The notes under the pieces are model-generated. The model did no database searches, was not told where the DNA came from, and worked only from the letters and a program-made list of their open reading frames with translations. 64,000 nt of DNA from positions 4,199 through 68,198 of the forward strand of contig CAVJFW010000001.1 in assembly GCA_963648975.1 (NCBI GenBank). Direction: 5' to 3'. A program made the translations under genes and the position numbers. The DNA is from a bacterium. Lineage in GTDB: Bacteria; Bacillota_I; Bacilli_A; RFN20; CAG-288. This document shows positions 731 to 46,875 of this stretch, one piece after another (within the stretch, counting starts at the first letter, position 1; each line of letters opens with the position of its first letter).

Positions 731-2233
731 ATGAAAATGAGAAAGATTTGGACGTTGATGACGACATTGCTTTTGGGATTCTGTTCCACCTTGGGGGTCA
801 AGACCATGTCTTATTCATTGACTGGCTCAGTGGAAAAGAAGGCAAATCAGGTTACGGAATCCTTATGCGATCCTGACGCTGTGGAAATCACTGATGTCGA
901 TGAGAATTTCAAGGTTACGGTCACGAATGCCACTAAAACGGATCATTCCCAATCCTTTACCATTCGCTTCAAGGCGGAGGAGAGTGAGAATGATTATATT
1001 TTAGGTTATGTTTCTGAAGACGAGAACGGCCTTCATTACCCGCTTGTTGCATCCTATCAGCTGAAGGACAAGGAAACGAAGAAAACGAAGAAGGTTGAAG
1101 AAAAAATACCTATCATTTCGGAAACGAATGCCTTCGATGGCATCGGACCTGGCATGGGTACGACATCCCTGACCTACAATTTTGATTTTGCCTATTCCTC
1201 GGAGTACGAGTTTGTGGATGGCTCCCTGGTCGTCTATAACATCTATGGCGACAAGCGTGATGCCGACGGTTCGGTCATCATCAACAAGGAAGAATCCTAT
1301 AAGTGTGCCATCGACAACAAGGCCAGCGATACCATCGATGTCCAACCTTACTTCAGCGCCAATCTCGAAAATGTCTCGACTTTCGGAAGTTATGTCACCT
1401 TCAATGTGAAGTATGAAAACAAGACAGATGAGCTTTATAAGGTCAAGAAGGCATCGGCCTATAAGAAAAACAAGGAAGAGATCGATAACGGCAAAGCCAT
1501 CATCCAGTCTTCCATCTCCAATGTCCAGTCAGCCTTCTTCCGTCTTGAGTACAAGGACGGAAACATCATTGAATATAACATCTTTGATTATTCCATCACT
1601 TCCACCCAGACGATTCCGATGGGTGAATCGACATCCTGCTATCTGATCAAGGGTATCTCCTTGGAAAATCTCAAGAGCTTCTCTCTTCGTGGTGTATCCC
1701 TTACCGTCCAGGTCTATTCCGTCTTCGATGACGGTGTCACCAAGGTCAAGCCGAATACCAGCCTTGTCGCCAGAGTCGGATGCGTCTACTTCGCAAATGA
1801 GAACGATGATGTCACCAAGGTTTCCACGACAAACGTCATCCTTGTCTATGTGATCGCCGTCCTTGTCTATCTCCTTCTTGTCGGTGGACTTATTGCCGGT
1901 CTCTACTTCTATCAGAAGAACAAATACAAGAATGATGAATTCCGCAGAGTCGATGACAGACGCTTCTTCAAGACTGCCACCATCGCATATGTCGGAGGTC
2001 TTGACTTGCTTCTTGCCATCCTCTCCATTGTCTTCAGGGCCAATGGATTCAACAATACCTATACGACCTTCAATCCACTCGACAACATCATCGTTGTCAC
2101 TTGTATCCTCCTCATCTTCTTCATCGGATACTTCGTCAAATACTTCATCAATTTCTTCAAGGACAGAAAGTCCAGGAAAGAAAGCGAAAAACTCAAATTG
2201 AACGAATCCACTGACAGTGATGGAACCAAATAG
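731..2233 (+). CDS. Surface-exposed membrane protein of unknown function (signal peptide/lipobox-like N-terminus, large beta-rich ectodomain, three C-terminal TM helices)
   Basis: N-terminus MKMRKIWTLMTTLLLGFCSTLG. C-terminal hydrophobic helices VILVYVIAVLVYLLLVGGLIAGLYF, LDLLLAILSIVF and IIVVTCILLIFFIGYFVKYF. Stop lies 12 nt before the ABC ATPase gene. Confidence 0.55.
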   Translation: MKMRKIWTLMTTLLLGFCSTLGVKTMSYSLTGSVEKKANQVTESLCDPDAVEITDVDENFKVTVTNATKTDHSQSFTIRFKAEESENDYILGYVSEDENGLHYPLVASYQLKDKETKKTKKVEEKIPIISETNAFDGIGPGMGTTSLTYNFDFAYSSEYEFVDGSLVVYNIYGDKRDADGSVIINKEESYKCAIDNKASDTIDVQPYFSANLENVSTFGSYVTFNVKYENKTDELYKVKKASAYKKNKEEIDNGKAIIQSSISNVQSAFFRLEYKDGNIIEYNIFDYSITSTQTIPMGESTSCYLIKGISLENLKSFSLRGVSLTVQVYSVFDDGVTKVKPNTSLVARVGCVYFANENDDVTKVSTTNVILVYVIAVLVYLLLVGGLIAGLYFYQKNKYKNDEFRRVDDRRFFKTATIAYVGGLDLLLAILSIVFRANGFNNTYTTFNPLDNIIVVTCILLIFFIGYFVKYFINFFKDRKSRKESEKLKLNESTDSDGTK

Positions 2234-2244
2234 GAGTAAGAAAA

Positions 2245-4170
2245 ATGGAAATCAAATTAAAGAACTTAACCAAAATCTTCCCAGGCAATCCAAAGAAGAA
2301 CATCCGTGACACAATCGCCGTCAACAATCTCGATTTCGAAGTACCGGACGGACAGCTCGTCGGTCTTTTGGGCCCTTCCGGATGCGGTAAATCCACGACT
2401 TTGTATATGATTGCCGGTCTATTGAAGCCGACTTCCGGCGAAGTCTGGTTCGGCGACCAGGAAGTCACCAACCTTCCACCGGAAAAGAGAGGCATCGGAC
2501 TTGTCTTCCAGAACTATGCCCTCTATCCTCACATGACCATCTACAAGAACATCGAATTCCCGCTCACGAACCTCAAGGTCGAGGTCCCGTTGGTCACTTT
2601 CTTTGATTTCACATTGAACTTCACCTACAGGATGAAGGAAAACGATGATGCCGAAGGAATTCTTCTTTCCGTCACATCCCTGGCCAAGAAAATCGGTCTC
2701 AACAAGAAACAGTACACTATCTCCTATCAGACGGAAAACGGTGATCTCAAGCTGACTGCCGCCCTCCATAATGTCTCTGAGGAGGTCAGAAGAATCTTCG
2801 TCGAGAACATGGCCAAGGTTCTTGATGACTACAAGCTTGATGAAGAGAAGGTGCAGACAAGCGAAGCTCTCTTCGATTCCAAGATCAGAGCCGATGTCAT
2901 GGTCAAGAGCGAACTCGAGAAATGCGATGTCAACTTCACGGCCAAACTTACCAGTGACTTCACTACCTCCAAGATGGACGAAATCATCACTGCCATACGC
3001 AATGTTGCCAATAAATACGGAAAGGCCGAAGCCGTCACCATCATCAAGTCAAAGACCGGATATGAGCTTATCGCACGTGTCAAATCCATAAGAAGCGTCG
3101 ATAGGGAAAAGATGGAAGAGGAATTCAAGACAAGTGTGAATTTTGCCTCTTCAAGTCTTGCCGTTACCCATGTCGAGAGCAAGGAATTCGCACTCTCCAT
3201 AAAGAATACCCTCAAGAATCTCAATCTCAGCTTCTCCGACCTGAAGCTCTATTATGAAAAGAACCAGCTGAAGATCTTCCTCATCATCACCAAATCGACA
3301 AAGGATGATGTACAGAAAGGTCTTGACGCCCTTACCACATCCTTGGGTCTTGTCAACATCCAAAACGATACCAGGACTGCCATCACCCACAGAAAGCTCA
3401 CCAAGGCCGAGAGACAGGAAATCGTCTATGAGACGGCCAAGCTTGTCCAGGTCGACGAATATCTCGAAAGAAAGCCGAGTCAGCTCTCCGGTGGTCAGCA
3501 ACAGCGTGTCGCCATCGCCAGAGCCTTGGTCAAGAAGCCGAAGATGCTTCTTCTCGATGAGCCATTGAGTAACCTCGATGCCCGTCTGAGACTTCAGACG
3601 AGAGAGGAAATCAGAAGAATCCAGCAGACGACCGGCATCACCACCGTCTTTGTCACACACGATCAGGAAGAGGCTATGTCCATTTCCGACAAGATTGTCG
3701 TCATGAAGCTCGGTGAGGAACAGCAGATCGATTCTCCACAGAACGTCTATAATTCCCCAGCCAATCTCTTCGTCGGACAGTTCCTTGGAACGCCTCCGAT
3801 CAATGTCTTCGAAGGTGAAATCAAGGATAAGACCGTCTATATCGGAAATGAACCAATCTATAAGACGACGAGCGACATCAAGGACCAGAAGCTCTTTGTC
3901 GCCATCCGTCCGGAAGGCATGATTGCCAATTCGGAAGAGGAATTAGGCTTCACTGCCGATGTCGAACAGGTTCAGGTCCTCGGAAGAGACCTGTTCATCG
4001 TCGCAAGGAACGATGCATGCACGAAGCCGACATTCAAGTCCATCATCTCCTCTGATGAGAAGATCAGTGTCGGCAAGATACGTCTCAGCGTCAAGAAGGA
4101 CAAGTTCTTCCTCTTCGACCATGAGACCGAGCAGCGTATCTATCTTTCCGAAATCAATGAAGGTAAATAG
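2245..4170 (+). CDS. ABC transporter ATP-binding protein, MalK/MsmX (CUT1) type, with a ~270-aa insertion in the ATPase core and a C-terminal TOBE-like domain
   Basis: Walker A GPSGCGKST; Q-loop LVFQNYALYPHMT; signature LSGGQQQRVAIARAL; Walker B MLLLDEP; H-loop VTHDQEEA. The motifs are separated by an unusually long insert (roughly aa 113-385). The C-terminal tail resembles the MalK regulatory/TOBE domain. Confidence 0.85.
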   Translation: MEIKLKNLTKIFPGNPKKNIRDTIAVNNLDFEVPDGQLVGLLGPSGCGKSTTLYMIAGLLKPTSGEVWFGDQEVTNLPPEKRGIGLVFQNYALYPHMTIYKNIEFPLTNLKVEVPLVTFFDFTLNFTYRMKENDDAEGILLSVTSLAKKIGLNKKQYTISYQTENGDLKLTAALHNVSEEVRRIFVENMAKVLDDYKLDEEKVQTSEALFDSKIRADVMVKSELEKCDVNFTAKLTSDFTTSKMDEIITAIRNVANKYGKAEAVTIIKSKTGYELIARVKSIRSVDREKMEEEFKTSVNFASSSLAVTHVESKEFALSIKNTLKNLNLSFSDLKLYYEKNQLKIFLIITKSTKDDVQKGLDALTTSLGLVNIQNDTRTAITHRKLTKAERQEIVYETAKLVQVDEYLERKPSQLSGGQQQRVAIARALVKKPKMLLLDEPLSNLDARLRLQTREEIRRIQQTTGITTVFVTHDQEEAMSISDKIVVMKLGEEQQIDSPQNVYNSPANLFVGQFLGTPPINVFEGEIKDKTVYIGNEPIYKTTSDIKDQKLFVAIRPEGMIANSEEELGFTADVEQVQVLGRDLFIVARNDACTKPTFKSIISSDEKISVGKIRLSVKKDKFFLFDHETEQRIYLSEINEGK

Positions 4171-4172
4171 AC

Positions 4173-5249
4173 ATGAGCGATCCTACTCTTGAACTGAGAG
4201 AGCAGAAAAGTCTGACCGCCACGAATGATTTCTTCGAAGCACGTCCGGAATATCAGGACAGCTACAACGAAGAAAACAACACGATCGTCAGACTTGTGAA
4301 AGCTCCAAAGGCAAATGAAAAGCCTTATAAGATCACCGGCATCGAGGATGTGGCCGCCAAGAACAACTGGAAGGCATGGCTATATATCGCACCGGTCCTG
4401 ATTCTTCTTGTCGTCTTCCTTCTCTATCCGCTCATCAACACCATCTTCATCTCCTTCCTGGACAACTATTCCTACATCGATGGAAGCTTCGATGGTGTCA
4501 CTCTCAACAACTTTGGTGTCATCTTCGGCCTTACCACAACAGCCAGTGGCGGTAAGGAAGTCAACTTCGTGACTTACGCCATTCCGAACACCTTCCTCAT
4601 TGTCTTCATCACCGTTCCTCTGGCCACGTTGATTGCACTTCTCATCTCCGTCGCCCTCAATCAGCTGCCGTTCTTCAAGAAGTTCCTTCAGACGGTCTTC
4701 TTCCTTCCGTATGTCACCAATGCCATCGCCATCGGTATGGTCTTCTCGGTCATCTTTGATCAGAATGGTGTCATCAACTATCTCTTCAACACGGATATCA
4801 CTTGGATCTATGGCGCCAAGAGGGAAGTCGCATTCATTCCACTTTGCATATACATCATCTGGTCCAGTCTTCCCTTCAAGATTCTCATCTTCCTCAGCGG
4901 TCTTCAGGGTATCGACAAGCAGTACTACAACGCGGCCAAGATCGATGGTGCCGGAAGTCAGAAGATCTTATGGAAAATCACTGTTCCTCTCATGTCTCCA
5001 CAGATTCTCTACATCGTCGTCACCAGTTTCATCGGTGCCTTCAAGGAATACACTTCCATCGTTGGCTTATTCAACGGTCCTGGTACCAGCAATGGTTCCT
5101 ACAACATGTACACCATCGTCTACTACATCTACGAATATCTCTCCAAGCAGACCAGTTTGGCTGCAGCCGCAGCCGTCTTCCTCTTCGTCGTCATCCTCAT
5201 CTTCACCGGACTGCAGTTCCTTGTCAGCAAGAAGAGAGTGCATTACTAA
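4173..5249 (+). CDS. ABC transporter permease, MalF/UgpA-like (CUT1 family)
   Basis: Multiple TM helices and the EAA-loop-like segment AAKIDGAGSQKILWKITVPL. Starts 3 nt after the ATPase stop. Confidence 0.85.
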   Translation: MSDPTLELREQKSLTATNDFFEARPEYQDSYNEENNTIVRLVKAPKANEKPYKITGIEDVAAKNNWKAWLYIAPVLILLVVFLLYPLINTIFISFLDNYSYIDGSFDGVTLNNFGVIFGLTTTASGGKEVNFVTYAIPNTFLIVFITVPLATLIALLISVALNQLPFFKKFLQTVFFLPYVTNAIAIGMVFSVIFDQNGVINYLFNTDITWIYGAKREVAFIPLCIYIIWSSLPFKILIFLSGLQGIDKQYYNAAKIDGAGSQKILWKITVPLMSPQILYIVVTSFIGAFKEYTSIVGLFNGPGTSNGSYNMYTIVYYIYEYLSKQTSLAAAAAVFLFVVILIFTGLQFLVSKKRVHY

Positions 5250-5262
5250 GGAGAAATGAAAA

Positions 5263-6228
5263 ATGGAAAAGAAAACTTACATTGATTTCTCCAAGGTCAA
5301 GGTCAATGACAACATCGTCTTATCCTTGGCTGAATCCGACCGCACCGTCGAGGTGATTCAGAAGAGACAGAAGGTCACCAACGTCGTTTCGACAGTGATC
5401 TTATATGTCATCATATTGGCTCTTGCCCTGTTCATGATCTTCCCGTTCTATTGGATGATCATCACATCCCTGAAGAACAATACGGAAGTCATCTCTCCGA
5501 CGCAGACCTTCTATCCGACCATCGTCATGTGGTCCAATTATGTCTATGTCTTCCAATACTTCGATTTCGGCGAATACATGCTCAACACCATCGTCGTCGC
5601 AGCCGTTTCCACTCTGGGAACATTGATCACCACCATTCTTGCCGGCTATGCCTTCGGCAGACTTCAGTTCAAGGGAAGGGAAGCCCTGTTCATGGTCTTC
5701 CTTACCACGATGATGATTCCTGGTGAAATGATGGTCATCTCAAACTACATCACCGTCGCATCCTTCGGTTGGATTGGATCAGGTCAGACAAGACTTCAGG
5801 CTTATGCAGCCATGATCGTTCCGTTCTGGATCAGCGTCTTCTACATCTACCTTCTGAGACAGAACATCAAGCAGATTCCGAATGAACTTTATCTTTCCGC
5901 CAAGGTCGACGGAAAGTCCGATTGGTCCTTCCTTTGGAAGGTTGTCGTTCCGCTTGTCATGCCGACATTGATTTCCATCACCATCCTCAAGTTCATGGGT
6001 ACATGGAACTCCTATGTCTGGCCTAACCTCGTCACCAATGATGCAAGCTACAGACTTATCTCCAATGGTCTTAGAGGTTCGACATTCACGGATTCCGATA
6101 CGGGTATGACTTCCTATGGCTATCAGATGGCAGCCACGGTCTTGGTTACTGTTCCTCTGTTCCTTCTCTTCGTCATCTTCCGCAAGTACATCATGCGCGG
6201 TGTCGGTCGTGCCGGTATCAAAGGTTAG
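5263..6228 (+). CDS. ABC transporter permease, MalG/UgpE-like (CUT1 family)
   Basis: Six predicted TM helices and the EAA-like motif LSAKVDGKSDWSFLWKVVVPL. Tightly linked to the upstream permease. Confidence 0.85.
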   Translation: MEKKTYIDFSKVKVNDNIVLSLAESDRTVEVIQKRQKVTNVVSTVILYVIILALALFMIFPFYWMIITSLKNNTEVISPTQTFYPTIVMWSNYVYVFQYFDFGEYMLNTIVVAAVSTLGTLITTILAGYAFGRLQFKGREALFMVFLTTMMIPGEMMVISNYITVASFGWIGSGQTRLQAYAAMIVPFWISVFYIYLLRQNIKQIPNELYLSAKVDGKSDWSFLWKVVVPLVMPTLISITILKFMGTWNSYVWPNLVTNDASYRLISNGLRGSTFTDSDTGMTSYGYQMAATVLVTVPLFLLFVIFRKYIMRGVGRAGIKG

Positions 6229-6280: not shown

Positions 6281-7795
6281 ATGAACAAGAAATTTATTTC
6301 CGTCATCACTTTGCCGTTGATGGTTGCTGCCATGGTGGGCTGCAGCAAGACGGCGACTTCTGCTGCTTCCAATTCTGCCGCACCTTCTGAATCTTCATCT
6401 GCCACCACTGGTCCTCTCATCAAGGAAAAGACCGAAATCACCTTATGGTCCATCACCGGTAAGAACAACCAGGCTCAGCTTCAGTCCTATATCGATAAAT
6501 TCATGAAGGCTGAACCGAATGTCACCGTCAACAATGTCATTCAGACCGGCATGAGCTACAACGAGCTCAAGGAAGCCGTCATCAAGGGCTTCTCTGCCAA
6601 CAACTATCCGGATATGGTTCAGTGCTATGCCGACCACGTCGCCGAATACATCAAGTATGGCAAAGCCGTCAATCTTGATTCCTATATCGACAATGCCGAG
6701 TATGGCTGGACAGCCGAAGACAAGGCCGACATCTATCAGTCCTTCATCACTGAAGGTCAGGAATATGCCACTGCCGGTACCTATTCCGTTCCATATTGCA
6801 AATCCACTGAAGCCATGTATTACAATGCCGATATTCTCATCGGCCTTGATCTTTCCAAGTATGACAGCTCCATCAATGGTGGCAAGAAGCTTTCTGCTGC
6901 CTATCTTGACGATCTGACTTGGGAAGAGCTTTTCGAGCATCTCTGCCCTGCCATTGTCGCCTACAACGATTCCCTTCCGGACAACAAGAAGATTCTCAAG
7001 AACGATCAGGATTATTCTGCTGTCTTTGCCTATGATTCCGATGACAACCTCTTCATTACCTTGGCCAAGCAGTATGGCATCAACTATACTTCCGTCGACA
7101 CGACTACCGGAAAGGGAAAATTCAATTTCGGTGAAGGTGAAGACAAGACCAAGATGGAAACACTTCTCAAGAAGTTTGCTGAGTATGCAAAGAAGGGTTA
7201 CATCATCTCCAAGGGTAGTGCCGGCAACAACTACACCAACACCTACTTCACCAAGCAGAACACCCTCTTCAGCGTCGGTTCCACCGGTGGCTACAAGTAT
7301 CAGTTCGATTCCACCAACCCGATGAATGTCGGTGTCGCAAAGATTCCACATGCCGAAGGAAAGAGCCAGTACACCATCAACCAGGGTCCATCCCTTTCCA
7401 TCCTTGATCATTCCGATGCCAACAAGAAACTTGCTTCTTGGTTGCTCTACAAGACCATCACTGATGAAGAATGCTCTCTTGACTGGGCTTTGAACTCCGG
7501 TTACATGGGTATCAGAAAGTCCAACACCAGCAACGACGAATATAAGGATGCATCTGACTATGAAAGCAAGGATGCAAAGACCATCGACAGACTCTCTGCC
7601 TACAACATGACCTATTCCGGCAGAAGTGATGTTCTCAATTCTCTCTATGTTTCTCCTGCCTTTGTCGGCTCCTCCACGGCCAGAACCCAGGTCGGTGCCA
7701 TCATCACCAAGGTTCTCACCAAGACCAACGATGCCGAAAAGGATATAGATTCCTGGTTCGAGGACGCCTATAACCAGTGTCTCCTTGCCCTTTAA
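6281..7795 (+). CDS. Extracellular solute-binding lipoprotein (SBP family 1-like), copy 1, oversized at 504 aa
   Basis: Lipoprotein signal with lipobox MVGCSK, followed by a Ser/Ala-rich linker. Paralogous to the next gene (shared blocks NYP..YADHVA.Y, SVGSTGG, ARTQVGAIIT). GGAGG-like RBS (aagggggttag) upstream. Confidence 0.75.
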   Translation: MNKKFISVITLPLMVAAMVGCSKTATSAASNSAAPSESSSATTGPLIKEKTEITLWSITGKNNQAQLQSYIDKFMKAEPNVTVNNVIQTGMSYNELKEAVIKGFSANNYPDMVQCYADHVAEYIKYGKAVNLDSYIDNAEYGWTAEDKADIYQSFITEGQEYATAGTYSVPYCKSTEAMYYNADILIGLDLSKYDSSINGGKKLSAAYLDDLTWEELFEHLCPAIVAYNDSLPDNKKILKNDQDYSAVFAYDSDDNLFITLAKQYGINYTSVDTTTGKGKFNFGEGEDKTKMETLLKKFAEYAKKGYIISKGSAGNNYTNTYFTKQNTLFSVGSTGGYKYQFDSTNPMNVGVAKIPHAEGKSQYTINQGPSLSILDHSDANKKLASWLLYKTITDEECSLDWALNSGYMGIRKSNTSNDEYKDASDYESKDAKTIDRLSAYNMTYSGRSDVLNSLYVSPAFVGSSTARTQVGAIITKVLTKTNDAEKDIDSWFEDAYNQCLLAL

Positions 7796-7853: not shown

Positions 7854-9287
7854 ATGAAAAATAAAAAAATATTCTCACTTATCGCTTCATTCACCCTTTT
7901 GGGTGGGCTTTGCTCCTGTTCCGGGACCAAGACTTCCACTTCGAGTGACAACAATTCATCCAGTGGAAAAGTCTCCATTGAATTCTGGCATACCTTCGGT
8001 AAGACGGTCACTGCCGCTTTCGAGTCCAAGATCGATAAGTTCGTCAAGCTTGTCAAGGAAAACGAAAATGTCGATGTCGAAATCAAGATGACATATCAGG
8101 GTGGCTATGATGACCTGCTTGAAAAAGTCCACAAAGGCTTTGCCACGGGAAATTATCCGAACCTTGCCATCGCCTATCCGGATCATGTCGCCCAGTATCT
8201 CAAGGATGAGGGAACCACTGCCGGAAAATATGTCGTTGACCTTTCACAGTACATCAATTCCGAGGAATATGGATTCGGAAAGGAATCCTATTTGGGAGAT
8301 GATGCGTCTTCTGATTTCGTCGATGCCTTCTACAAGGAAGGACAAAGCTATGCAAGAAGCGGCATCTATTCCCTTCCGGTCATGAAGTCGAGCGAAGTCC
8401 TCTTCTACAACAAGACGCAGGTGGCCAAATATGCTGCCCAGTATGATTCCACACTGAACACCGATGCCAAGGTCGAGAAGTTCATGTCCACCCTCACATG
8501 GGACAAGTTCATGGATTTCTGCAGATTCATCAAAAATAAGGCTACGAGCATCGAGGTTCCATTTGTATACGACTCTGATTCCAACCTCTTCATCACCAAG
8601 TGCTATCAGAATGACATAGACTTCCTCTCCATCAACGATGATGGTCAGGGACAGGTCCTCTTCAACAACGATAAGGCCAAGGCAATGGTCACATCATTGA
8701 AATCCTGCTATAACGAAGGACTTATCGCCACTAAGGGCACCTACGGCACTTATTCTTCCGAAAAGTTCACGAATGAGAAATGCTTCTTCACCGTCGGCTC
8801 CACAGGTGGTGCTGGATACAATTACCCATCAGGTGATTCCTTCACCGTCGGTGTCGCTCCGGTTCCCTATGACAACAAGCAGACTTATGTCACCCAGGGT
8901 CTTACCGCAACAGTCCTCAAATATAAGGATACGGATGGAAAGAAGGCCTTGTATTCCTATAAGTTCCTGAAGTATATCACAAGCGCGGAAGTAAATGCCG
9001 ATTTATGTGTCAACGGTTCTGAAGGTTATTCCCCGGTAAGAAATAGTGCCTATGAGACGGACCTCTATCAGGAATACCTGAAGAATGAAGATGACGACTT
9101 TATGCCGAAGGTTGCCAACATCGTCTATAAGGACATCAATGGCAAATACTTCACGACACCTTGCTTCTCTGGCTCTGCAACAGCAAGAGACCAGGTCGGT
9201 GGCATCATCACCCAGGTATTCACCGGTGACAAGACCGTCGACAAGGCATTTGAAGATGCTGAGAACCAGACTAAACTGGCAATGTAG
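7854..9287 (+). CDS. Extracellular solute-binding lipoprotein, copy 2 (paralog of 6281-7795)
   Basis: Lipobox LLGGLCSCSG. Conserved blocks shared with copy 1 (NYPNLAIAYPDHVAQY, TVGSTGGAGYNY, ATARDQVGGIIT). Confidence 0.75.
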   Translation: MKNKKIFSLIASFTLLGGLCSCSGTKTSTSSDNNSSSGKVSIEFWHTFGKTVTAAFESKIDKFVKLVKENENVDVEIKMTYQGGYDDLLEKVHKGFATGNYPNLAIAYPDHVAQYLKDEGTTAGKYVVDLSQYINSEEYGFGKESYLGDDASSDFVDAFYKEGQSYARSGIYSLPVMKSSEVLFYNKTQVAKYAAQYDSTLNTDAKVEKFMSTLTWDKFMDFCRFIKNKATSIEVPFVYDSDSNLFITKCYQNDIDFLSINDDGQGQVLFNNDKAKAMVTSLKSCYNEGLIATKGTYGTYSSEKFTNEKCFFTVGSTGGAGYNYPSGDSFTVGVAPVPYDNKQTYVTQGLTATVLKYKDTDGKKALYSYKFLKYITSAEVNADLCVNGSEGYSPVRNSAYETDLYQEYLKNEDDDFMPKVANIVYKDINGKYFTTPCFSGSATARDQVGGIITQVFTGDKTVDKAFEDAENQTKLAM

Positions 9288-9296
9288 GTACAAATT

Positions 9297-10694
9297 ATGA
9301 AAAAATTGAAATTATTGTTGATTTCCGGGCTTCTCTTCTCTCTTGCATCCTGTAAGACAACCGGAAATGTGACTGCGTCAGAAAACTTAAAATCTCATGT
9401 CGATTATTATCTTTCCGACAATGTGAGACTCAATCTTGACTATGCCAAGAAATCCTTCTGGACGGATGGCGTCGAGAAGGTGTCCCTGAAGACCTGTATC
9501 GATGGAGATACCGCTCACTTCACTACCTCCACGGGAGACACCCTCAAGGCAAGATTCTATGGCATCGATACCCCGGAATCCACCGGCTCCGTCGAGATGT
9601 GGGGAAAGGATGCAAGCGACTTCACCAAGGCAAAGCTGAAGGAAGCTGATGAGAAAGGAACCATCGTCATCTCCTCTCCTTCCACAGCATATGGTGCTCC
9701 GACTCCGGATTCCACCGGTTCAAGATATGTCTCCCTGGTCTGGATCAACCTCACCAAGAAGGACGCTCCTCTCAGCGAACTATATCTGCTTAACCTCTGG
9801 ATTGTCCAGGAAGGTCTCAGCTATGTGAAGAATGTTGCTGACATGCCAGCCCTGTCGGATACATTCTATGCCGCGGAACAGCAGGCCAAGGATGAAAAAC
9901 TCTGTCTCTTCTCCGACAAGACTCCGGACAGCTGGAATGGCGGTGATTATGAGACGGTATCCCTTCTTGACATCAAGAAGGAAATCGAGAAGACGCTTGC
10001 TGATTCCACTCACGAGAACGCCTACAACAACAAACGAGTCAAAATCGTCGGAACGGTTGCCGGGTATGCAAACAATACCCTTTATATCCAGAACTTCTAT
10101 TCCAAGGAAGATGGCGGAAGATATGATTACGGAGAATATGCCGGAATCAATGCCTATACGGGTATGTCCACGATATCCAGCAAATACTCCAAGACGAATA
10201 CCTACATTCAGGTTTGTGGACTATGCCAGGATTCCGAGAACTTCGGCTTCCAGCTCACGGATACACAGTTCAAGCCTTATCCTTCGGATGATGACGAGAA
10301 GAACGCAAGAGTCCTTATCTCAGCCGCTGACAATGTCGATGAGTTCAAGCTTCACACCTTTGAAAAGAAGGCTGCGGAACTTTCCGCTGAAGTCCTCAAC
10401 TGTTCCGTCAAGGTTACGGATGAAGTCACAATCACCGGCGGATATAAGAGTGAGGATGGTGAATATACGCTATATGCTGAAGACTCATCAGGGAAGAAGT
10501 TGGATTGGGATATCTTCATTCCATTCAACTATCATCCGGTCGGAAACGAGACCCTCAACATCGACGATTACGAATACTTTGTCGGTAGGACCTACAAAGT
10601 CGAAGGTGTGTATACCTTCCACAAGTTCTCTTCTGGAAGAATCGGTTATCAGATCGTATTGAACAACAATGCGGGATTGACGGAGGTAATATGA
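9297..10694 (+). CDS. Surface lipoprotein nuclease with an SNase (thermonuclease) domain plus an OB-fold domain and a C-terminal domain of unknown function
   Basis: Lipobox FSLASCKT. SNase active-site-type motif CIDGDTAHF...KARFYGIDTPES. A downstream segment (KRVKIVGTVAGYANNTLYIQNF) resembles the OB-fold nucleic-acid-binding module found in YhcR-type extracellular nucleases. Confidence 0.7.
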   Translation: MKKLKLLLISGLLFSLASCKTTGNVTASENLKSHVDYYLSDNVRLNLDYAKKSFWTDGVEKVSLKTCIDGDTAHFTTSTGDTLKARFYGIDTPESTGSVEMWGKDASDFTKAKLKEADEKGTIVISSPSTAYGAPTPDSTGSRYVSLVWINLTKKDAPLSELYLLNLWIVQEGLSYVKNVADMPALSDTFYAAEQQAKDEKLCLFSDKTPDSWNGGDYETVSLLDIKKEIEKTLADSTHENAYNNKRVKIVGTVAGYANNTLYIQNFYSKEDGGRYDYGEYAGINAYTGMSTISSKYSKTNTYIQVCGLCQDSENFGFQLTDTQFKPYPSDDDEKNARVLISAADNVDEFKLHTFEKKAAELSAEVLNCSVKVTDEVTITGGYKSEDGEYTLYAEDSSGKKLDWDIFIPFNYHPVGNETLNIDDYEYFVGRTYKVEGVYTFHKFSSGRIGYQIVLNNNAGLTEVI

Positions 10695-11170
10695 TGTATT
10701 GCTGTCATTGTGGAAAAGAAGTCGACGAGAATAAGATCGAAGACAAGCGCATGTCAGAAACCATGCATGAAGAGAAGATAGACGAAAATACCACAATCGA
10801 ATATGTCTGCCCGAGATGTGGTCATCTCATCCATCATGATGTCACCAAACAGGAAATCAAGACGTTGGCAGCTGCAAGCCATGCCGAAATCCAAAAGGGA
10901 AGAAACGCCTTCTCCAATGGTATGTCACTCAACTGTGTCGGTGTCATCATTCTGATTTTGGCCATCATCTTCTTCCAGTTATCAAAGAAACCGGCACAGA
11001 ACTTCGCCCTTGTGACGACATGCCCGGAATTCATGGTTTCCATGTTCGCGTTTGCCGTCGGAGGTGTACTTCTCATACTCGGACTTGTCTTCACCTTCAT
11101 CGGTGTCATCAACAAGCATAAATATCAGAAGCTTCTGGAAGACATCCAGGACGATGTCTTCCATCAGTAG
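10691..11170 (+). CDS. Small membrane protein with an N-terminal zinc ribbon (CxxC...CxxC) and two TM helices
   Basis: CHCGKEV...CPRCGH, followed by hydrophobic helices VGVIILILAIIFF and FAFAVGGVLLILGLVFTFIGVI. Start overlaps the nuclease stop by 4 nt. Confidence 0.45.
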   Translation: MMYCCHCGKEVDENKIEDKRMSETMHEEKIDENTTIEYVCPRCGHLIHHDVTKQEIKTLAAASHAEIQKGRNAFSNGMSLNCVGVIILILAIIFFQLSKKPAQNFALVTTCPEFMVSMFAFAVGGVLLILGLVFTFIGVINKHKYQKLLEDIQDDVFHQ

Positions 11171-11213
11171 TCGATGGTTCATGAAATAACGAAAATCAAA
11201 GGAGGTTTAGTTC

Positions 11214-14006
11214 ATGAAAAAGAAAGTGATTCTCAGTGTTGTTTCTTTGTTCTCCCTCTTGGGCATTGCTGGCTGCAACCAAACGGCCACATCCTCTGCT
11301 TCCGATAGTGTATCATCCTCTACTCCGGTTTCCTCTTCTGCAGTTACATTAAGCAAGCTTGCCATCTCCAACAAATCTGATCTTACCAGCTTCTTCTATA
11401 CTTCGGATTCCAACCGTTCCCTTTCCATCGATGTTGATGCCGACAAGAACGTTTCCCAGCTCATTGCCGATGGCGTCATCAAGATCACATCCAGCAATAC
11501 CAGTGCTGTCAATGTCCTGGGTGTCTATGTTGTTCCAGTCGGCGTAGGTGCTTCCACAATCACCGTCACTGGTGGTGGACTTTCCGATACTGTCGACGTC
11601 TATGTCGGAAACCCGACCACCATCGTTCCTGAGGATACGGAAGTCGGTGTTGGCAATACTCTTGCCGTCAGTATTTCTTCCGAGAAGAATTCCAAGACTT
11701 TGACTGATTACAACTGGTCTTCCAGCAACACTGCTATTGCCACCGTTGATGCCAATGGTGTCATCACCGGTGTTGCCAACGGCTCGGTGACCATCACCTG
11801 CAAGCTCAAGAGCAATGAAAAGGAAGGCGCCAGTGTCACTCTGACCGTTAGCGACGATGCTAAGGCTCCTGTTGCCATCAATACCCTTAAGGCAGCTGGA
11901 AACTATACCGTCCGTGGCAAGGTCGTTGCCATCAATACCAATTCCTATATCCTTGATGACGGAACCGGAACCATCATGGTCTATAAGACCTGCAAATTCA
12001 GCATCGGTGACATTGTCAAGGTCAGTGGTGCCGTTGTTGTCTATGGCGCACAGAAACAGCCGGAATTCTCTGGCTCATTCACCGAAACAAAGGTCGGTGG
12101 CTCCGTTACAGCCATGTCTGCCGTCGATCTGACTGTCGATATTCTCAAGGCCGCCAAGAATTCCACTGCCGACACATATTACACTTATGCAAAGCTCTAT
12201 AAGTGGAACGCTACGGCTGTCGTCAACTCTTCCGGTTATTTGGTTTTGAATCTTGCTGATGGCGGCGATGTTGAACCAATCAAACTCAACACAACGACCT
12301 TCCCATACACTGCAGGTCATTATTATTCCGTTGAAGGTTATTGGTGTGGCTGGAACTCTTCCTATAACTATCACGCTTTCGTCATTTCCAAGCTTGAGGA
12401 AGTTGATCCTCCGACTACCATCGTTGAGATTTCCGATTCTGCACTTCAGGTCGACGCCAAGAACACCAGAAAGCTTTCTGCAACCTATGTTCTTTCCAAG
12501 GCTGATGCAGCCGTAAATGCCGTCACTTGGTCTTCCAGCGACACTGCCGTTGCCACCGTTGATCAGAATGGTGTCGTCACCGGTGTTGCCAAAGGTACCT
12601 GTGAAATCATCGCCACTGTCGGTGGCGGAAGCGCAAAATGCAAATTGACCGTCATTGACGAAGTCTCTTTGTCTGCCATCAATACCGTCACGGAGGGTAA
12701 TAAGCTTTACAGAGTCAAGGGTGTCATCACCGAAATCGGAGCCAATGGTTACCTCATCAATGACGGAACTGGTTCCATCTATGTCTATATGCTCAACAGC
12801 TCTGCCTTGGCATATAAGAAGGGTGACTATATCGAAGTTACTTCCAAGACCGCTCTCTTCAAGGGGTCATTGATGTTTGAGAATGTCACCAAGAATGACA
12901 AGAATAAGAGTCAGTATGGTGTCCTTGATGCCGAAGTCTATAAACTTGATGATACTGCCCCGGAGACCGGTGATACCACCAAGGCCACAGCCATGACAAA
13001 GGATATTTTCAATAGTCTTGTCAAGACGACTGAGGCCTCTTCCGTCGCCGCCATCAAGAAGTATTCCTTCACGGCAACCGTCAATGGAGACTATCTTAAT
13101 CTTGAACTTGATGGTTGGGAAGGAAGTAGTGCCGCAACTGTCAAATTCAGTGATTTCACTTCTTCTTCCATGAAGGCCACTTTGAAAGATACCTATAAGT
13201 TCAAGGTTGAAGGCTATTTCATGGGCGCTGATGACAGGAATAAGGAGTTCCTCATCTCCAAGGCAACCAGTGTTGCCCAGACAAGAATCGATCCGACTGA
13301 ATCCAGTGTCATCGTTGTCAAGGGTGGTGATGCCAAGGCTGTCACCTATACATGGTCTTTGGCTGATGATGTTGCAACTGGAAGCGTCGATGTTTCCATT
13401 GACGATACCTCCATTGCCACCATTGCACATGATGCTGGCAAGAAGGAAATCGCCATTACTCCAGTTGCTGCCGGTAAGACAACTATCAATCTTGCCATCA
13501 AGGGAGCTGATGGAAATTCCATTGCCACCAATAAGATTGCCGTCACCGTCGTCTCTTCCAAGGTTGAAATCAAGGCTTCCACGCTTGGCCTTTCCAAGAG
13601 TGCCAAGGATAGCGCAACCGAGGCTACCAAGGATGCAGGTGGCGTTACCTATGCATACACTGCCCTGGGAACGGATTCCAGCAACAACATGATCTTCAGC
13701 TCCGTTAAAAAGAATTCGAATTCCAGTACTGCTTCTGTCCTCAGAAATACGACTGAAATGTCCTCTGGCATCATCGGTTTCGGCATCACCCTCAAGAGCA
13801 ACAGCTATTCCAATAGCGATATCCTTGAATTTAGCTTCGGTGATGATGTCAACTGTGATAAGGGTTCTGTAAAACTCTCTACCACAGCCAATGTCGTTGA
13901 TTACACCATCTATGCTCCAGCATCGACCTATAAATTCTTCAAAATCTCCTATATTGCCTCTGACTACAACCTTTACGTCAAATCACTTTCCGTTCTTCTC
14001 GCCTAA
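11214..14006 (+). CDS. Large surface lipoprotein built from Big_2 (bacterial Ig-like group 2) domains alternating with OB-fold-like modules
   Basis: Lipobox LLGIAGCNQT. At least three Big_2-type signatures (NWSSSNTAIATVDANGVITGVANGSVTITCKL; VTWSSSDTAVATVDQNGVVTGVAKGTCEIIA; SIDDTSIATIAHDAGKKEIAITPVAAGKTTINL). Two OB-like repeats (VRGKVVAINTNSYILDDGTGTIMVY and YRVKGVITEIGANGYLINDGTGSIYVY). Strong RBS AAAGGAGG upstream. Confidence 0.7.
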   Translation: MKKKVILSVVSLFSLLGIAGCNQTATSSASDSVSSSTPVSSSAVTLSKLAISNKSDLTSFFYTSDSNRSLSIDVDADKNVSQLIADGVIKITSSNTSAVNVLGVYVVPVGVGASTITVTGGGLSDTVDVYVGNPTTIVPEDTEVGVGNTLAVSISSEKNSKTLTDYNWSSSNTAIATVDANGVITGVANGSVTITCKLKSNEKEGASVTLTVSDDAKAPVAINTLKAAGNYTVRGKVVAINTNSYILDDGTGTIMVYKTCKFSIGDIVKVSGAVVVYGAQKQPEFSGSFTETKVGGSVTAMSAVDLTVDILKAAKNSTADTYYTYAKLYKWNATAVVNSSGYLVLNLADGGDVEPIKLNTTTFPYTAGHYYSVEGYWCGWNSSYNYHAFVISKLEEVDPPTTIVEISDSALQVDAKNTRKLSATYVLSKADAAVNAVTWSSSDTAVATVDQNGVVTGVAKGTCEIIATVGGGSAKCKLTVIDEVSLSAINTVTEGNKLYRVKGVITEIGANGYLINDGTGSIYVYMLNSSALAYKKGDYIEVTSKTALFKGSLMFENVTKNDKNKSQYGVLDAEVYKLDDTAPETGDTTKATAMTKDIFNSLVKTTEASSVAAIKKYSFTATVNGDYLNLELDGWEGSSAATVKFSDFTSSSMKATLKDTYKFKVEGYFMGADDRNKEFLISKATSVAQTRIDPTESSVIVVKGGDAKAVTYTWSLADDVATGSVDVSIDDTSIATIAHDAGKKEIAITPVAAGKTTINLAIKGADGNSIATNKIAVTVVSSKVEIKASTLGLSKSAKDSATEATKDAGGVTYAYTALGTDSSNNMIFSSVKKNSNSSTASVLRNTTEMSSGIIGFGITLKSNSYSNSDILEFSFGDDVNCDKGSVKLSTTANVVDYTIYAPASTYKFFKISYIASDYNLYVKSLSVLLA

Positions 14007-14017
14007 TTGATTTCATA

Positions 14018-14050
14018 GGCCCACCACATGGTGGGCCTTTATATTTTTTC
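14018..14050 (+). terminator. Rho-independent terminator closing the nine-gene locus
   Basis: GC-rich hairpin GGCCCACC-ACAT-GGTGGGCC followed by a T-rich tract (TTTATATTTTTT), 12 nt after the stop codon. Confidence 0.75.
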
Positions 14051-44037: not shown

Positions 44038-46875
44038 TTACTGCCGGGAAGCGTCAAATGCATCCTTTACCGAGAAGTTCCTGATTCGTTTTGAAAGCAG
44101 GAAACCGACGCTTCCGCTAAGTATGATGGCGACAAGAAAACTGATGAGGAACGGCCCTATGTCAAAGGTATAGGTGGACAATAGGTCATTTAATGTGTTA
44201 GATAAAATTTTTTCGGCAAAAAGGGATAAAAGCATCGATAACAGGAAACCGACCAAGCCGATGAAAAGAGAGAAGGAAAGATAGAATCTCACGATTTCCT
44301 TCTTGCTGTACCCTAAGGAGAGAAGTATGCCGATTTCCTTTCTGTCCTTGCTGATGATGAGGAAAAGGGAGAGGCCGAGAAGCGATGCTGCCGAAAATAG
44401 GGACAGGATGGAAAAGGAAAGGAAGAGGACGGATAGGCTATTGAGTGTCTTCTTGATTTCCTGAATCATCAGATACATGGGAAAGCTACCTTCGTAATCT
44501 CCGTATTTCCTGATCAGGGATAGATAATAATCCGTGGAATGCTTTTCGATATCCACCTTCATGATGACCTGTTCGATTCTTGTCTCTTCCGGTTTCAGCT
44601 GACCATAGCTGAAGGAATAACATAAAGGGAAAAGGGAATCCTGATAGATGGCATACCTGTCGCTGTCGTAGATTCCTGAGATTTTCAGTTCTCCGGGGGT
44701 GAAATGGTTCTTGTATTTTCCGTTTGCCTTCACTGTCTCATCAAGAGTCAGAGTATATAACGTCTTGTTCAGTGCGTTTGACGAGCTATGAAAAAGCTCT
44801 TCAGCCATCTTTTTTGATATTCCGATTTCATCATGGCTTTTTGGATTTTTTCCATATGATGCCTTTATGCCACTGTTGTTCAGGGTAATGAATGACAGGG
44901 ATGAATCATGGTTCATGCTGCTTAACAGGTCACCTTTTATGACACCGGGTATCTCCTTTATGAGTGAGCCCTGGAAGGAGCCGAGGTTCTTGTCCGAATA
45001 AGCAGAATCATCCTCTATCTGGTTCAGTTTCTCCTTGTATTTGGAAAAGAAGAACGGCTTGGCAAATCCGGAAATGTAGCCGGATGCCGTATAGGTATAG
45101 ACCGGAGAGGAATAGCTGACGGAACTGATGAGATCACTGTTCTTTTCGATGAAGTGGTTGATTTCGCTTAAGTTTATCTTCGGAAGGTAGTCTTTTATGA
45201 TGGCGATGTGATTGTGTGTCTCTTTTTCATCGACCGAGAAATAGTTTTCTTCCTTGACCATCTTCAGGGTATAGCCGTTGTTGGCTTCTTCTTCAAGGAA
45301 TGACTTCAGAAAGGTGGCTTCCCTATAGGGATATAACCTGAAACCATCAAGCTTTTTCAGTGTCCAGGGTTTATCCGGGTTGGATTTTTCCTCTTCCCCT
45401 GTCTGCTCGAAATGCATGATATCCAGGACAAAGTGCTCCGAGAATGTGTCTGATGGACTGACGATGTAATTCTTTTCATCCACGAGGAATCCGACGATCC
45501 GGAAGGAATAGTCATGGAAATATCCCCATTCCGATTTGTTCGCCTGCAATCTCAGTTCCACGATGTTTCCTTTCAGTTGGTTGCCAAGCTTTTCCATTGT
45601 CTTTTCATCGATGGATGAAGCCATGGAATCAAAAAGCATCATGTACAGGGCTTTGATCTGATCTTCCTTCATTGCCAGAATCAGTTCCTCCTCCTCAAGA
45701 TTCTCGTTTTTTCCGTAAATCGTTTTTCCAGGTAGTTCCTCAGGCATCCTGTAGGAGAGGAAATGGTCAAGTGAGAACTTTTCCATGGGCAATGTCTTCT
45801 TGTTGAACTTCAGTTCCAATGCCTGATTGTCGGTGAAGATGGCATCAAGGGAAGAGGTGTAGAAAGTGGAGATGGAAATGATTTCGTCCTTGTGCCTGTT
45901 TTTCATCTTTGCCAGCGTCGCATAATCGACACTGCTGAAGCCGTTGTCAGTGATGGTGGAATCCTTTTTGGATATGACCAGTGAATTCTCGTCCATATAG
46001 GATGACATCGATTTTGCAAGCGCCCTTGATACCGATGAACTGAGCTGAAAGGAGAAAGTGATGGAAAAAAGGGATATCATCAGACTGAAAAGGACAATCA
46101 GGAGAAACTCCTTCTTTGCTTTCAGAAGACTGAGCAGTGGCTTTATAATCACCTTCCCCCTGAATTCCTTTCTTTGATAAGAAAAGGTGGAAGGCACATT
46201 TTCCCTATGCCTTCCTGACTTTATGAGATGAAGATTCCCGTTGACAAGTTCATGGACGAATGAATTGGCTGGGATTTCATCTTTCTCGTGGGTGATGACG
46301 ATGACAAGCCTTCTTCTGCTTTCCTCCTCGAGCATTGCCGTAATGCTTTTTCTCAATGCTGGATTGAGATTGGACAGAGGCTCATCAAGCAAGAGTATCG
46401 GACAGTCCCTTATCAATGCTCTGACTAAGGAGATTCTTTTCTTTTCTCCACCGGAGAGATTCTTGAAGATTGTGCTTTCCTTATCTAGTAGTCCCACCTT
46501 TCTTAGTCCATCCCTGATTCTTTCTTCCTTTTGTCTGGCTGTCAGAGTGGTTATGGACAAGGCTTTCAGAAGATTGTCCCTGACAGTCTCCCAATCTTCA
46601 GCCTGGTATGACTGAAAGGCAAAGCTGACGGTTCTGAATCGATAGTCGTCTTTTTTTCTTTCATCCAATTGCCTTAGCTCCTCGCCGTTGACGATCAAGG
46701 AACCTTCGTATTTCTCATCCATGAGTCCGATGAGGTTCATGAGGGTTGATTTTCCTGCTCCGGATTTTCCGATGAAATAGACGAGTCCCGTGTCCGGCAG
46801 GTCAAACGAGATGTTGCTCAATGTGTTGTTTTTGTTTCCGTCATATTTTTTTGACAGATTTCTTGCTCTTATCAT
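44038..46875 (-). CDS. Fused ABC transporter ATP-binding/permease protein, MacB/FtsX type, with a ~520-aa extracytoplasmic domain
   Basis: N-terminal ABC ATPase (GKSGAGKST; LSGGEKKRISLVRAL; ILLLDEP; ITHE), one TM, a large hydrophilic domain, then three C-terminal TM helices of FtsX type. Confidence 0.75.
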   Translation of the reverse strand: MIRARNLSKKYDGNKNNTLSNISFDLPDTGLVYFIGKSGAGKSTLMNLIGLMDEKYEGSLIVNGEELRQLDERKKDDYRFRTVSFAFQSYQAEDWETVRDNLLKALSITTLTARQKEERIRDGLRKVGLLDKESTIFKNLSGGEKKRISLVRALIRDCPILLLDEPLSNLNPALRKSITAMLEEESRRRLVIVITHEKDEIPANSFVHELVNGNLHLIKSGRHRENVPSTFSYQRKEFRGKVIIKPLLSLLKAKKEFLLIVLFSLMISLFSITFSFQLSSSVSRALAKSMSSYMDENSLVISKKDSTITDNGFSSVDYATLAKMKNRHKDEIISISTFYTSSLDAIFTDNQALELKFNKKTLPMEKFSLDHFLSYRMPEELPGKTIYGKNENLEEEELILAMKEDQIKALYMMLFDSMASSIDEKTMEKLGNQLKGNIVELRLQANKSEWGYFHDYSFRIVGFLVDEKNYIVSPSDTFSEHFVLDIMHFEQTGEEEKSNPDKPWTLKKLDGFRLYPYREATFLKSFLEEEANNGYTLKMVKEENYFSVDEKETHNHIAIIKDYLPKINLSEINHFIEKNSDLISSVSYSSPVYTYTASGYISGFAKPFFFSKYKEKLNQIEDDSAYSDKNLGSFQGSLIKEIPGVIKGDLLSSMNHDSSLSFITLNNSGIKASYGKNPKSHDEIGISKKMAEELFHSSSNALNKTLYTLTLDETVKANGKYKNHFTPGELKISGIYDSDRYAIYQDSLFPLCYSFSYGQLKPEETRIEQVIMKVDIEKHSTDYYLSLIRKYGDYEGSFPMYLMIQEIKKTLNSLSVLFLSFSILSLFSAASLLGLSLFLIISKDRKEIGILLSLGYSKKEIVRFYLSFSLFIGLVGFLLSMLLSLFAEKILSNTLNDLLSTYTFDIGPFLISFLVAIILSGSVGFLLSKRIRNFSVKDAFDASRQ

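Follow-up and report, generated by a model that had tools for sequence, protein, structure and literature searches.

How can the ATPase of an ATP-binding cassette (ABC) importer carry a large extra domain in the middle of its catalytic core, and what might that domain do there? The question is raised by a 64,000-nucleotide (nt) stretch of DNA, referred to here as the window (contig CAVJFW010000001.1 of assembly GCA_963648975.1, positions 4,199 to 68,198), from a bacterium of the lineage Bacilli_A, RFN20, CAG-288. One of its genes encodes a 641-residue ATPase in which the Q-loop and the ABC signature lie far apart. Our analysis shows that the product is a complete ATPase of the MalK/MsmX type, serving a binding-protein-dependent importer, into which an autonomous domain of 276 residues has been inserted, and that this three-module insert is confined to one clade of small-genome gut/rumen Bacilli. 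The insert is predicted to consist of three tandem ferredoxin-like (ACT-like) modules carried on a conserved two-strand stalk.

The limits of the insert were defined by alignment to MalK-type proteins. The closest PDB sequence match of the ATPase is PH0203 of P. horikoshii (2it1; E = 5.5e-86, phmmer against PDB chains), and this match falls into two stretches, one pairing residues 3-108 with 4-101 of 2it1 and the other pairing 385-635 with 102-360, which leaves approximately 276 residues without a counterpart. The Pfam ABC_tran domain is also broken into two stretches. A BLASTP alignment to E. coli MalK, at 40-50% identity, placed the break between MalK L100 (L107 of the window protein) and K101 (K384). 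The insert is T108-R383 and begins directly after the first helix of the helical subdomain, a helix that closes the N-terminal part of the nucleotide-binding domain and ends in ...EFPL. A preliminary description made from the sequence alone had placed a domain of about 270 residues at nt 2581-3400, within the catalytic core of a MalK-like ATPase; the alignments and the model matches described below bear this out and refine the limits to nt 2566-3393. The same description had set a canonical distance of about 50 residues between Q-loop and signature against roughly 300 here, and a baseline of 58 MalK-like genes from many phyla, retrieved with the NYALYPHM Q-loop pattern, agrees with it. The distance from NYALYPHM to SGGQ was 52-56 residues in 53 of these 58 genes and 62 residues in one, compared to 325 residues in the window ATPase, and the four outliers (78, 175, 192, and 325 residues) belong to Bacilli/Mollicutes-like metagenome-assembled genomes (MAGs). 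The insert is therefore not a helical-subdomain variant common to all homologues.

Outside the insert, the ATPase is conventional. All catalytic motifs were located (Table 1), and the C-terminal TOBE-like domain aligns to its end, confirming the expectation that Walker A, Walker B, the H-loop, and this domain are intact. The full-length AlphaFold2 model, built from a 43-sequence alignment, matched solely insert-free MalK-type ATPases of 340-393 residues, with template modelling (TM) scores of 0.62-0.74 normalised to the target, and the fold of its C-terminal region matches those of MalK, MsmX, and SugC. The protein resembles MalK/MsmX/UgpC/SugC-type ATPases of the CUT1 class (2it1; MsmX, 6yir; MalK, 1q12 and 2r6g) in its motifs and C-terminal domain, and its operon includes the two BPD_transp_1 permeases and an SBP_bac_1 protein expected of such importers. 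The difference is that the solved relatives all lack the 276-residue domain at L100/K101. The protein is thus a MalK/MsmX-type ATPase in every tested respect except for a compact helical subdomain.

When the insert was modelled alone from 28 sequences with AlphaFold2, it folded with a mean predicted local distance difference test score (pLDDT) of 92.3 and a predicted TM score (pTM) of 0.69, and all five models scored between 91.4 and 92.3. Within the full-length model the insert reached a pLDDT of approximately 88-92; the conserved N-terminal core was poorly modelled in that run, presumably given that there is almost no variation in this region of the alignment. The DSSP assignment of the insert model comprises two terminal strands (residues 111-115 and 380-384), 12 further strands, and 6 helices, and three beta-alpha-beta-beta-alpha-beta units, the topology of an ACT-like fold, are readily seen in the predicted structure. 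One assignment, that of strand 210-218 with the motif QTSEALFDSKIRA, is uncertain. The two stalk strands, NLKVEVPLV and TAITHRKL, exit and re-enter the ATPase side by side in the model, with the C-terminal strand leading the chain back to the helical subdomain. A Foldseek search of the PDB with the insert model matched it to proteins with ferredoxin folds or ACT domains in tandem (E = 1e-6 to 1e-4), among them the designed ferredoxin folds 4hhu and 4nez, the ACT domains of SerB2, regulatory subunits of aspartate kinase, the GcvR-like protein 1u8s, and the AHAS regulatory subunit, and no ABC ATPase was among the top 50 matches. The repeated modules of the ACT tandems (aspartate kinase regulatory subunit, SerB2, AHAS small subunit, and 1u8s) match those of the insert in topology. 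An inserted, repeated alpha/beta domain had been suspected from the sequence, and the predicted structure supports this. The further suggestion of two or three similar sub-segments holds for the three units of the model but not for significant sequence similarity, given that self-BLAST found no internal repeats and that module-versus-module profile comparisons, although in register, were not significant (P = 0.002-0.07; probability of 5% or less). The repetition is structurally right yet unprovable from sequence, and only the predicted structure supports it. The insert had also been described as rich in Lys and Glu, which is true of Lys (11.3%, compared to 8.5% in the rest of the protein) but not of Glu (8.0% versus 8.5%).

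Sequence searches with the insert returned little beyond its own family. We obtained no consistent Pfam match in 28 members, just scattered sub-threshold noise, found no specific NCBIfam model, and saw nothing under E = 0.18 when the insert profile was compared with PDB sequences. A HMMER profile search of 1.84 billion representative proteins gave 17 matches and no relatives outside the ATPase family; the matches were family members or fragments, except for one that we judged spurious, a marginal hit (E = 8e-4) to a Big_2-like repeat protein. The insert is an uncharacterised domain family that has no Pfam or PDB sequence match and is predicted to fold at high confidence. The insert profile search also returned a 441-residue protein (P0031) that joins module 3 and the C-terminal half of the ATPase to an unrelated N-terminus of approximately 130 residues whose start resembles a signal peptide; it probably stems from a chimeric metagenome contig and does not represent a genuine architecture.

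The insert recurs across assemblies and homologue clusters. The identical 641-residue protein occurs with the same neighbours on three independent contigs, including those of GCA_963618855.1 and GCA_963632695.1, and a search with the full-length query found more than 120 homologue clusters (90% identity) of 634-666 residues from NCBI, JGI, ENA, and Logan, with the same insert in orthologous ATPases of related genomes. When the insert alone served as query in a word-indexed search, 19 proteins came back, most of them truncated, and the identical full-length protein was missed; fragment queries of this kind under-report the size of the family. The named sources of family members are "Bacilli bacterium" MAGs, and the 1.63-Mb length of the contig that carries one member is consistent with a small genome. 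The preliminary description had named an assembly artefact as something that would overturn it, and the recurrence of the protein and of its architecture dispels that concern. In two MAGs the insert-bearing ATPase gene is frameshifted after the signature/Walker B region (locus L001, 5734-7630; locus L067, 9001-10834; loci from related genomes are cited by such numbers), which may reflect a sequencing or assembly error or a pseudogene.

The insert was variable in sequence and constant in length. In the 43-member alignment, mean identity to the window protein was 92% and 90% for the two core halves, 44% for the insert, and 52% for the C-terminal regulatory domain, and the insert measured 273-292 residues in 42 of the 43 members. 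We compared nonsynonymous and synonymous substitution rates (dN and dS) with L064, the closest homologue for which DNA was compared. The insert and the C-terminal domain gave dN/dS ratios of 0.09 and 0.10, respectively, and the cores gave 0.004-0.007; these ratios are rough, given that dS was 0.5-1.4, and more distant pairs are saturated (dS above 1) and unreliable. The dN of the insert was approximately 20 times that of the core, and module 1 is the most variable module (dN/dS of 0.13). Approximately fifteen polar residues of the insert, together with the stalk, are near-invariant. Within the motif QTSEALFDSKIRA, Q204, A208, and D211 are kept in all 28 sequences and R215 in 27. The net charge of the insert ranges from -15 to +13 across the family (median isoelectric point of 8.3, range 5.1-9.5), and base composition is even along the ATPase gene. 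By these sequence comparisons the insert evolves like a genuine accessory domain rather than junk, and purifying selection acts on it about as strongly as on the C-terminal domain. We also noted that dS against L064 was higher in the insert (approximately 1.4) than in the core halves (0.5-0.7); stronger codon- or nucleotide-level constraint in the core, or recombination, is a possible explanation.

Orthologous or closely related ATPases, whose cores are 55-66% identical to the window core, differ in what they carry at the insertion site. An Acholeplasmataceae MAG (L018) has nothing at the site, Bacilli MAG191 (L002) has 25 residues, Candidatus Enteromonas (L004) has 122, bacterium H07675 (L003) has 139, and Erysipelotrichaceae RUG14619 (L001) has the full three-module insert. 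The L002, L003, and L004 inserts showed no similarity to the window insert, and those of L003 and L004 appear helix-rich by eye. The flanks of the site, FPLTNL(K/R)(V/L)E... and ...(K/R)(K/R)LT(K/R)(D/A)E, recur across the different insert types. L003 also shares the chromosomal position of the window family (tuf, a SIR2_2 gene, RDD-type membrane proteins, and then the ATPase) and is, for this reason, a positional orthologue with a different insert. In a further variant, P0013/P0014 at locus L067, module 2 is missing and a helical segment stands in its place, but the stalk, the QTSEALFD motif, and modules 1 and 3 remain, module 1 with a helical segment added to it; the motif QTSEALFDSKIRA is retained in the P0013 variant insert. 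The site is therefore a lineage-specific hot spot, with unrelated contents of 0, 25, 122, 139, and 276 residues.

The ATPase gene, which is preceded by an AGGAG ribosome-binding site 8 nt 5' of its ATG, belongs to a tight co-directional string of genes for a membrane protein, the ATPase, two permeases, two binding proteins, an SNase-domain protein, a 159-residue protein, and a Big_2 protein, followed by a strong hairpin (Table 1). Gene order is alike in L061, L064-L066, L068, and L069 and similar, although not identical, in L067. The SNase gene occupies the corresponding position in the same six loci, a faint Pfam SNase match is found there in L067, and an SNase homologue also lies downstream in L004. 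The stop codon of the upstream 500-residue membrane protein is 12 nt before the ATPase start. This protein matched no Pfam or NCBIfam model, and its homologues (27-63% identity) lie directly 5' of the ATPase gene in L001, L061, and L064-L066, that is, in every three-module-insert locus compared by sequence. An unannotated protein of approximately 500-720 residues takes the corresponding place in L067-L069, and no homologue was detectable in L002-L004 and L018, which have another insert or none; the protein thus accompanies the three-module insert only. We consider that the membrane protein may be an extra transporter subunit. Permease 1 begins with an N-terminal extension bearing the motif ...NDFF..RP.Y...VVRLV...YK.TGI.DVA.KNNWKAW, which is restricted to loci whose ATPase has the three-module insert. 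L003 and L004 lack it, their permease starting MESKNNWKAW, and the tail in L067, with its variant insert, is different and longer. This tail is a candidate binding partner of the insert. In total, insert, permease-1 tail, and upstream membrane protein were seen together in 9 loci, and neither the tail nor the membrane protein is present in L003 or L004. Two binding proteins instead of one are likewise found only alongside the three-module insert. The first has a hydrophobic start ending in ...MVGCSK, which by eye looks like a lipoprotein-type signal, and weakly matches the mycoplasma P68 lipoprotein family NF045826 (E = 1.4e-11; 43.6 bits against a curated cut-off of 200); the second has no Pfam match and is homologous to binding proteins in related loci.

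Table 1. Positions of the ATPase gene, its insert, and neighbouring features in the window (~, approximate limits; module secondary structure from DSSP on the AlphaFold2 model)
Feature	Residues	Window position (nt)	Strand	Remarks
Upstream membrane protein	500 in all	731-2233	+	N-terminal (signal) anchor, ectodomain of ~340 residues, three C-terminal transmembrane helices
ATPase gene with insert	641 in all	2245-4170	+	MalK/MsmX/UgpC-type ABC importer ATPase (open reading frame list, Pfam, PDB match)
Nucleotide-binding domain, N-terminal part	1-107	2245-2565	+	Aligns to 2it1 4-101 and MalK 4-100; 92% mean identity to 42 family members
Walker A, GPSGCGKST	43-51	2371-2397	+
Q-loop region	glutamine Q89	2506-2535	+
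Insert	T108-R383	2566-3393	+	276 residues; no counterpart in any PDB MalK-type chain
N-terminal stalk strand, NLKVEVPLV	109-117	2569-2595	+	Near-invariant, 24 to 28 of 28 sequences per position; predicted strand 111-115
Module 1	~117-205	2593-2859	+	Strand 120-129, helix 136-150, strands 157-164 and 167-177, helix 179-189, strand 197-204
Motif QTSEALFDSKIRA	204-216	2854-2892	+	Module 1/2 junction; most conserved motif inside the insert
Module 2	~206-299	2860-3141	+	Strands 210-218 and 226-235, helix 241-258, strands 260-269 and 272-283, helix 284-297
Module 3	~300-378	3142-3378	+	Strand 300-311, helix 313-325, strands 329-338 and 341-351, helix 353-367, strand 369-378
Motif FSDLKLYY in module 3		3232-3255	+	S331, D332, K334, and Y336 kept in 26-28 of 28 sequences
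C-terminal stalk strand, TAITHRKL	378-385	3376-3399	+	A379, H382, R383, and L385 in 27-28 of 28 sequences; predicted strand 380-384
Nucleotide-binding domain, remaining part	384-525	3394-3819	+	Aligns to 2it1 from 102 and to MalK 101-240 at 50% identity; family mean identity 90%
Signature, LSGGQ	414-418	3484-3498	+
Walker B, MLLLDE	434-439	3544-3564	+	Includes the catalytic Glu
D-loop, SNLD	442-445	3568-3579	+
H-loop	histidine H472	3652-3666	+
C-terminal MalK-type regulatory (beta-sandwich/TOBE-like) domain	526-641	3820-4167	+	Aligned up to 2it1 residue 360 of 362; model pLDDT 77-90
Permease 1		4173-5249	+	BPD_transp_1 (Pfam)
Permease 1, N-terminal extension	1 to ~66	4173-4370	+	Conserved, clade-specific, cytoplasmic, ~60 residues
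Permease 2		5263-6228	+	BPD_transp_1 (Pfam)
Substrate-binding protein 1		6281-7795	+	SBP_bac_1
Substrate-binding protein 2		7854-9287	+
SNase-domain (staphylococcal-nuclease-like) protein		9297-10694	+	Pfam SNase, E = 2.2e-8
159-residue protein, 930-residue Big_2 surface protein, terminator-like hairpin		10691-14038	+	Hairpin at 14017-14038; closes the co-directional gene string

The position of the insert bears directly on what it might do. Within ABC nucleotide-binding domains, no part varies more than the helical subdomain, which rotates on dimer closure and, jointly with the RecA-like subdomain, makes up the cleft in which the EAA coupling helices dock (PMC6906923). The preliminary description had remarked that an insert here could regulate coupling or recruit a partner, and we infer that this is the natural reading of the location. 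Given that the helical subdomain docks the coupling helices and rotates against the RecA-like subdomain in each cycle, we propose, as the likeliest reading and with a probability of roughly 40%, that the insert may serve as a built-in regulatory or docking module. Its partner would be a ligand in the cytoplasm and/or one of two proteins, the upstream membrane protein or permease 1 through its clade-specific tail; binding would restrain or license rotation of the helical subdomain, and the restrained or licensed rotation would in turn gate ATP-driven import. The retention of an SNase nuclease in the operon suggests that the cargo could be nucleic-acid breakdown products or another scavenged nutrient. 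A more elaborate version, which we regard as rather unlikely, would make the insert, the permease-1 tail, and the upstream membrane protein a new regulatory unit in which the insert senses a metabolite in the cytoplasm (such as a signal of the nucleotide or nucleoside pool), clamps the helical subdomain via the tail, and so switches a nuclease-coupled scavenging importer on or off.

There are precedents for accessory domains on the ATPases of type I importers, which are regulated by domains or proteins that prevent dimer closure; the regulatory domain of MetN has a ferredoxin-like fold and mediates trans-inhibition, and ModC and EIIA-Glc also block dimer closure (PMC4245157). The proposed logic would be that of MetN C2 (methionine trans-inhibition), the regulatory domain of ModC (molybdate trans-inhibition), and EIIA-Glc acting on the MalK regulatory domain, but exerted from inside the helical subdomain. 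MetN C2 shares its ferredoxin-like fold class with the insert. The domains of MetN, ModC, and MalK are, however, single C-terminal modules, whereas the window ATPase has three modules inside the helical subdomain, in addition to an intact MalK-type C-terminal domain. The insert is not a MetN-type C2/NIL domain, given that it is internal, has no NIL match, and shows no sequence similarity. The same topological site, between Q-loop and signature, bears functional appendages in other ABC proteins, such as the coiled coils of Rad50/SMC, the insertion domains of UvrA, and the "arm" of ABCF proteins, but these are non-transporters and their insertions are coiled coils, zinc modules, and helical hairpins. 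We found no solved importer ATPase with an insertion between Q-loop and signature, nor any account of one in the literature that we searched.

Mycoplasmas offer a close parallel at the level of the operon. Their surface SNase, lipoprotein, and sugar-type ABC transporter genes are co-transcribed, and import of nucleic-acid or nucleotide precursors has been proposed for them (PMC3585158, PMC12115388). MAG_5030-5070 of M. agalactiae and the mhp379 locus of M. hyopneumoniae have a like gene content, comprising an SNase, a lipoprotein-type binding protein, a MalK-like ATPase, and two permeases, and the window, in which the SNase gene is co-directional with a sugar-type ABC importer, follows this arrangement. 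The ATPase MAG_5050 is given as having "two ATP-binding domains" (PMC3585158). A split ABC domain would look like this, and mycoplasma ATPases may also have inserts at the site. Further SNase-linked ABC operons are MG185-189 of M. genitalium and MPN133-136 of M. pneumoniae; MG187 and MPN134 are approximately 585 residues long, which would also imply an insert. Any mycoplasma insert is not detectably homologous to the one in the window, because the exhaustive profile search with the insert found no mycoplasma relatives, and our literature search returned no explicit description of an insertion in mollicute MalK-like ATPases.

Several observations weigh against a regulatory or docking role. With a pTM of 0.56, the full-length model leaves it uncertain how the insert is oriented on the ATPase. 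The Foldseek TM scores of the insert were just 0.2-0.39, and the ACT-like assignment holds at the fold level only; the scores are low because single modules alone superpose and the arrangement of modules differs from that of the ACT tandems, which also differ in host protein and have no sequence-level relationship to the insert. A scan of 28 insert sequences at E values up to 1 gave no ACT or NIL Pfam match, no ligand-binding motif was identifiable in the insert, and the ferredoxin-like fold serves many unrelated functions. The co-occurrence with the permease tail and the membrane protein is effectively a single evolutionary event, because the loci form one clade with little phylogenetic independence. 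Finally, module 2 can be lost, as in P0013, and the insert is not essential to this type of transporter, given that sister lineages have other inserts or none.

We therefore weighed other explanations for the insert. One possibility is that the insert serves structure or assembly and not sensing, its modules pairing between the two ATPase copies or, by strand addition, with the permease-1 tail; it would then hold the complex together or anchor an extra membrane subunit without ligand-dependent control. ACT/ferredoxin-like modules commonly dimerise through their sheets, as the tandem ACT matches do, the conserved VVRLV motif of the co-occurring permease-1 tail is strand-like, an upstream membrane protein accompanies both, and the stalk is conserved while the module surfaces vary. 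However, MalK-type ATPases are already joined by their C-terminal domains, and that domain is intact here, and the conserved, buried-looking polar residues Q204, D211, R215, R278, D332, K334, and Y336 would also suit a binding site. The variability of the site could also be taken to mean that the insert is a largely neutral, lineage-specific expansion at a tolerant surface loop of the helical subdomain, which in reduced-genome Bacilli would have gained sequence time and again; what was gained in this clade would fold by chance and be kept only to avoid misfolding. The unrelated contents of the site in orthologues, the high dN, the drifting net charge, and the dispensability of module 2 in P0013 are all consistent with this. 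Neutrality is nonetheless unlikely given the tightly kept insert length over more than 40 diverse members, a dN/dS (approximately 0.09-0.2) that equals that of the regulatory C-terminal domain, the near-invariance of the stalk and the polar residues, and a clade-specific permease tail that co-varies with the insert.

The nuclease gene raises the alternative that the insert binds nucleic acid or oligonucleotides, with RRM-like modules receiving or sensing imported nuclease products in the cytoplasm. The SNase gene is conserved in the operon, the ferredoxin-like fold is common to RRM-type binders (at the fold level only), and the SNase-linked ABC operons of mycoplasmas are the ones proposed to import nucleotide precursors (PMC3585158). 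We nevertheless consider it very unlikely and have down-weighted it because the net charge of the insert is not conserved, and the insert lacks a conserved basic character. RNP-type aromatic motifs were not found, Pfam scans of 28 members gave no RRM or KH match, and both the permeases and the binding proteins belong to the sugar (CUT1) type. It is extremely improbable that the insert is an artefact or selfish element, be it a chimeric assembly join, an intein, or the fusion of two gene halves. The sole support for this is the splitting of ABC_tran in two, whereas a chimeric join or gene fusion is refuted by the three assemblies, the family-wide architecture, and the continuous reading frame under purifying selection, and the even base composition also speaks against it. 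As for an intein, there is no Hint Pfam match in the insert, the predicted fold is ferredoxin-like rather than Hint, and the junctions, read by eye as ...FPL/TNLKV and ...THR/KLT, lack the residues required by a standard intein, given that the insert starts with T108-N109 and is followed by K384 rather than by Cys, Ser, or Thr.

The insert is thus a real, conserved, and structurally well-defined domain at a mechanistically sensitive place, and this matters beyond the single gene. Known post-translational control of type I ABC importers acts through C-terminal regulatory domains or separate proteins, and a folded domain of three modules placed in the helical subdomain would offer another route to controlling or extending such an importer. 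If the regulatory-unit version were true, control would be exerted from within the coupling interface and not through the C-terminal regulatory domain. The orthologue series of 0, 25, 122, 139, and 276 residues also constitutes a natural experiment on the tolerance of a coupling element, and the host transporter is encoded in a nuclease-linked operon of a type believed to let wall-less bacteria salvage nucleic-acid precursors.

Two further observations concern other genes. In several related genomes a SIR2_2 protein of 433-434 residues is encoded upstream of the transporter, with tuf on one side and the genes for RDD-type membrane proteins on the other (L003, 2022-3323; L064, 820-2121; L065, 3890-5191; L066, 3915-5219; L068, 3984-5288; L069, 3915-5219), a position that lies upstream of the start of the window. 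Elsewhere in the window, the minus strand at 44038-48839 encodes two adjacent proteins of 945 and 654 residues in which an N-terminal ABC_tran domain is fused to a C-terminal FtsX-type permease, an arrangement that is MacB-like.

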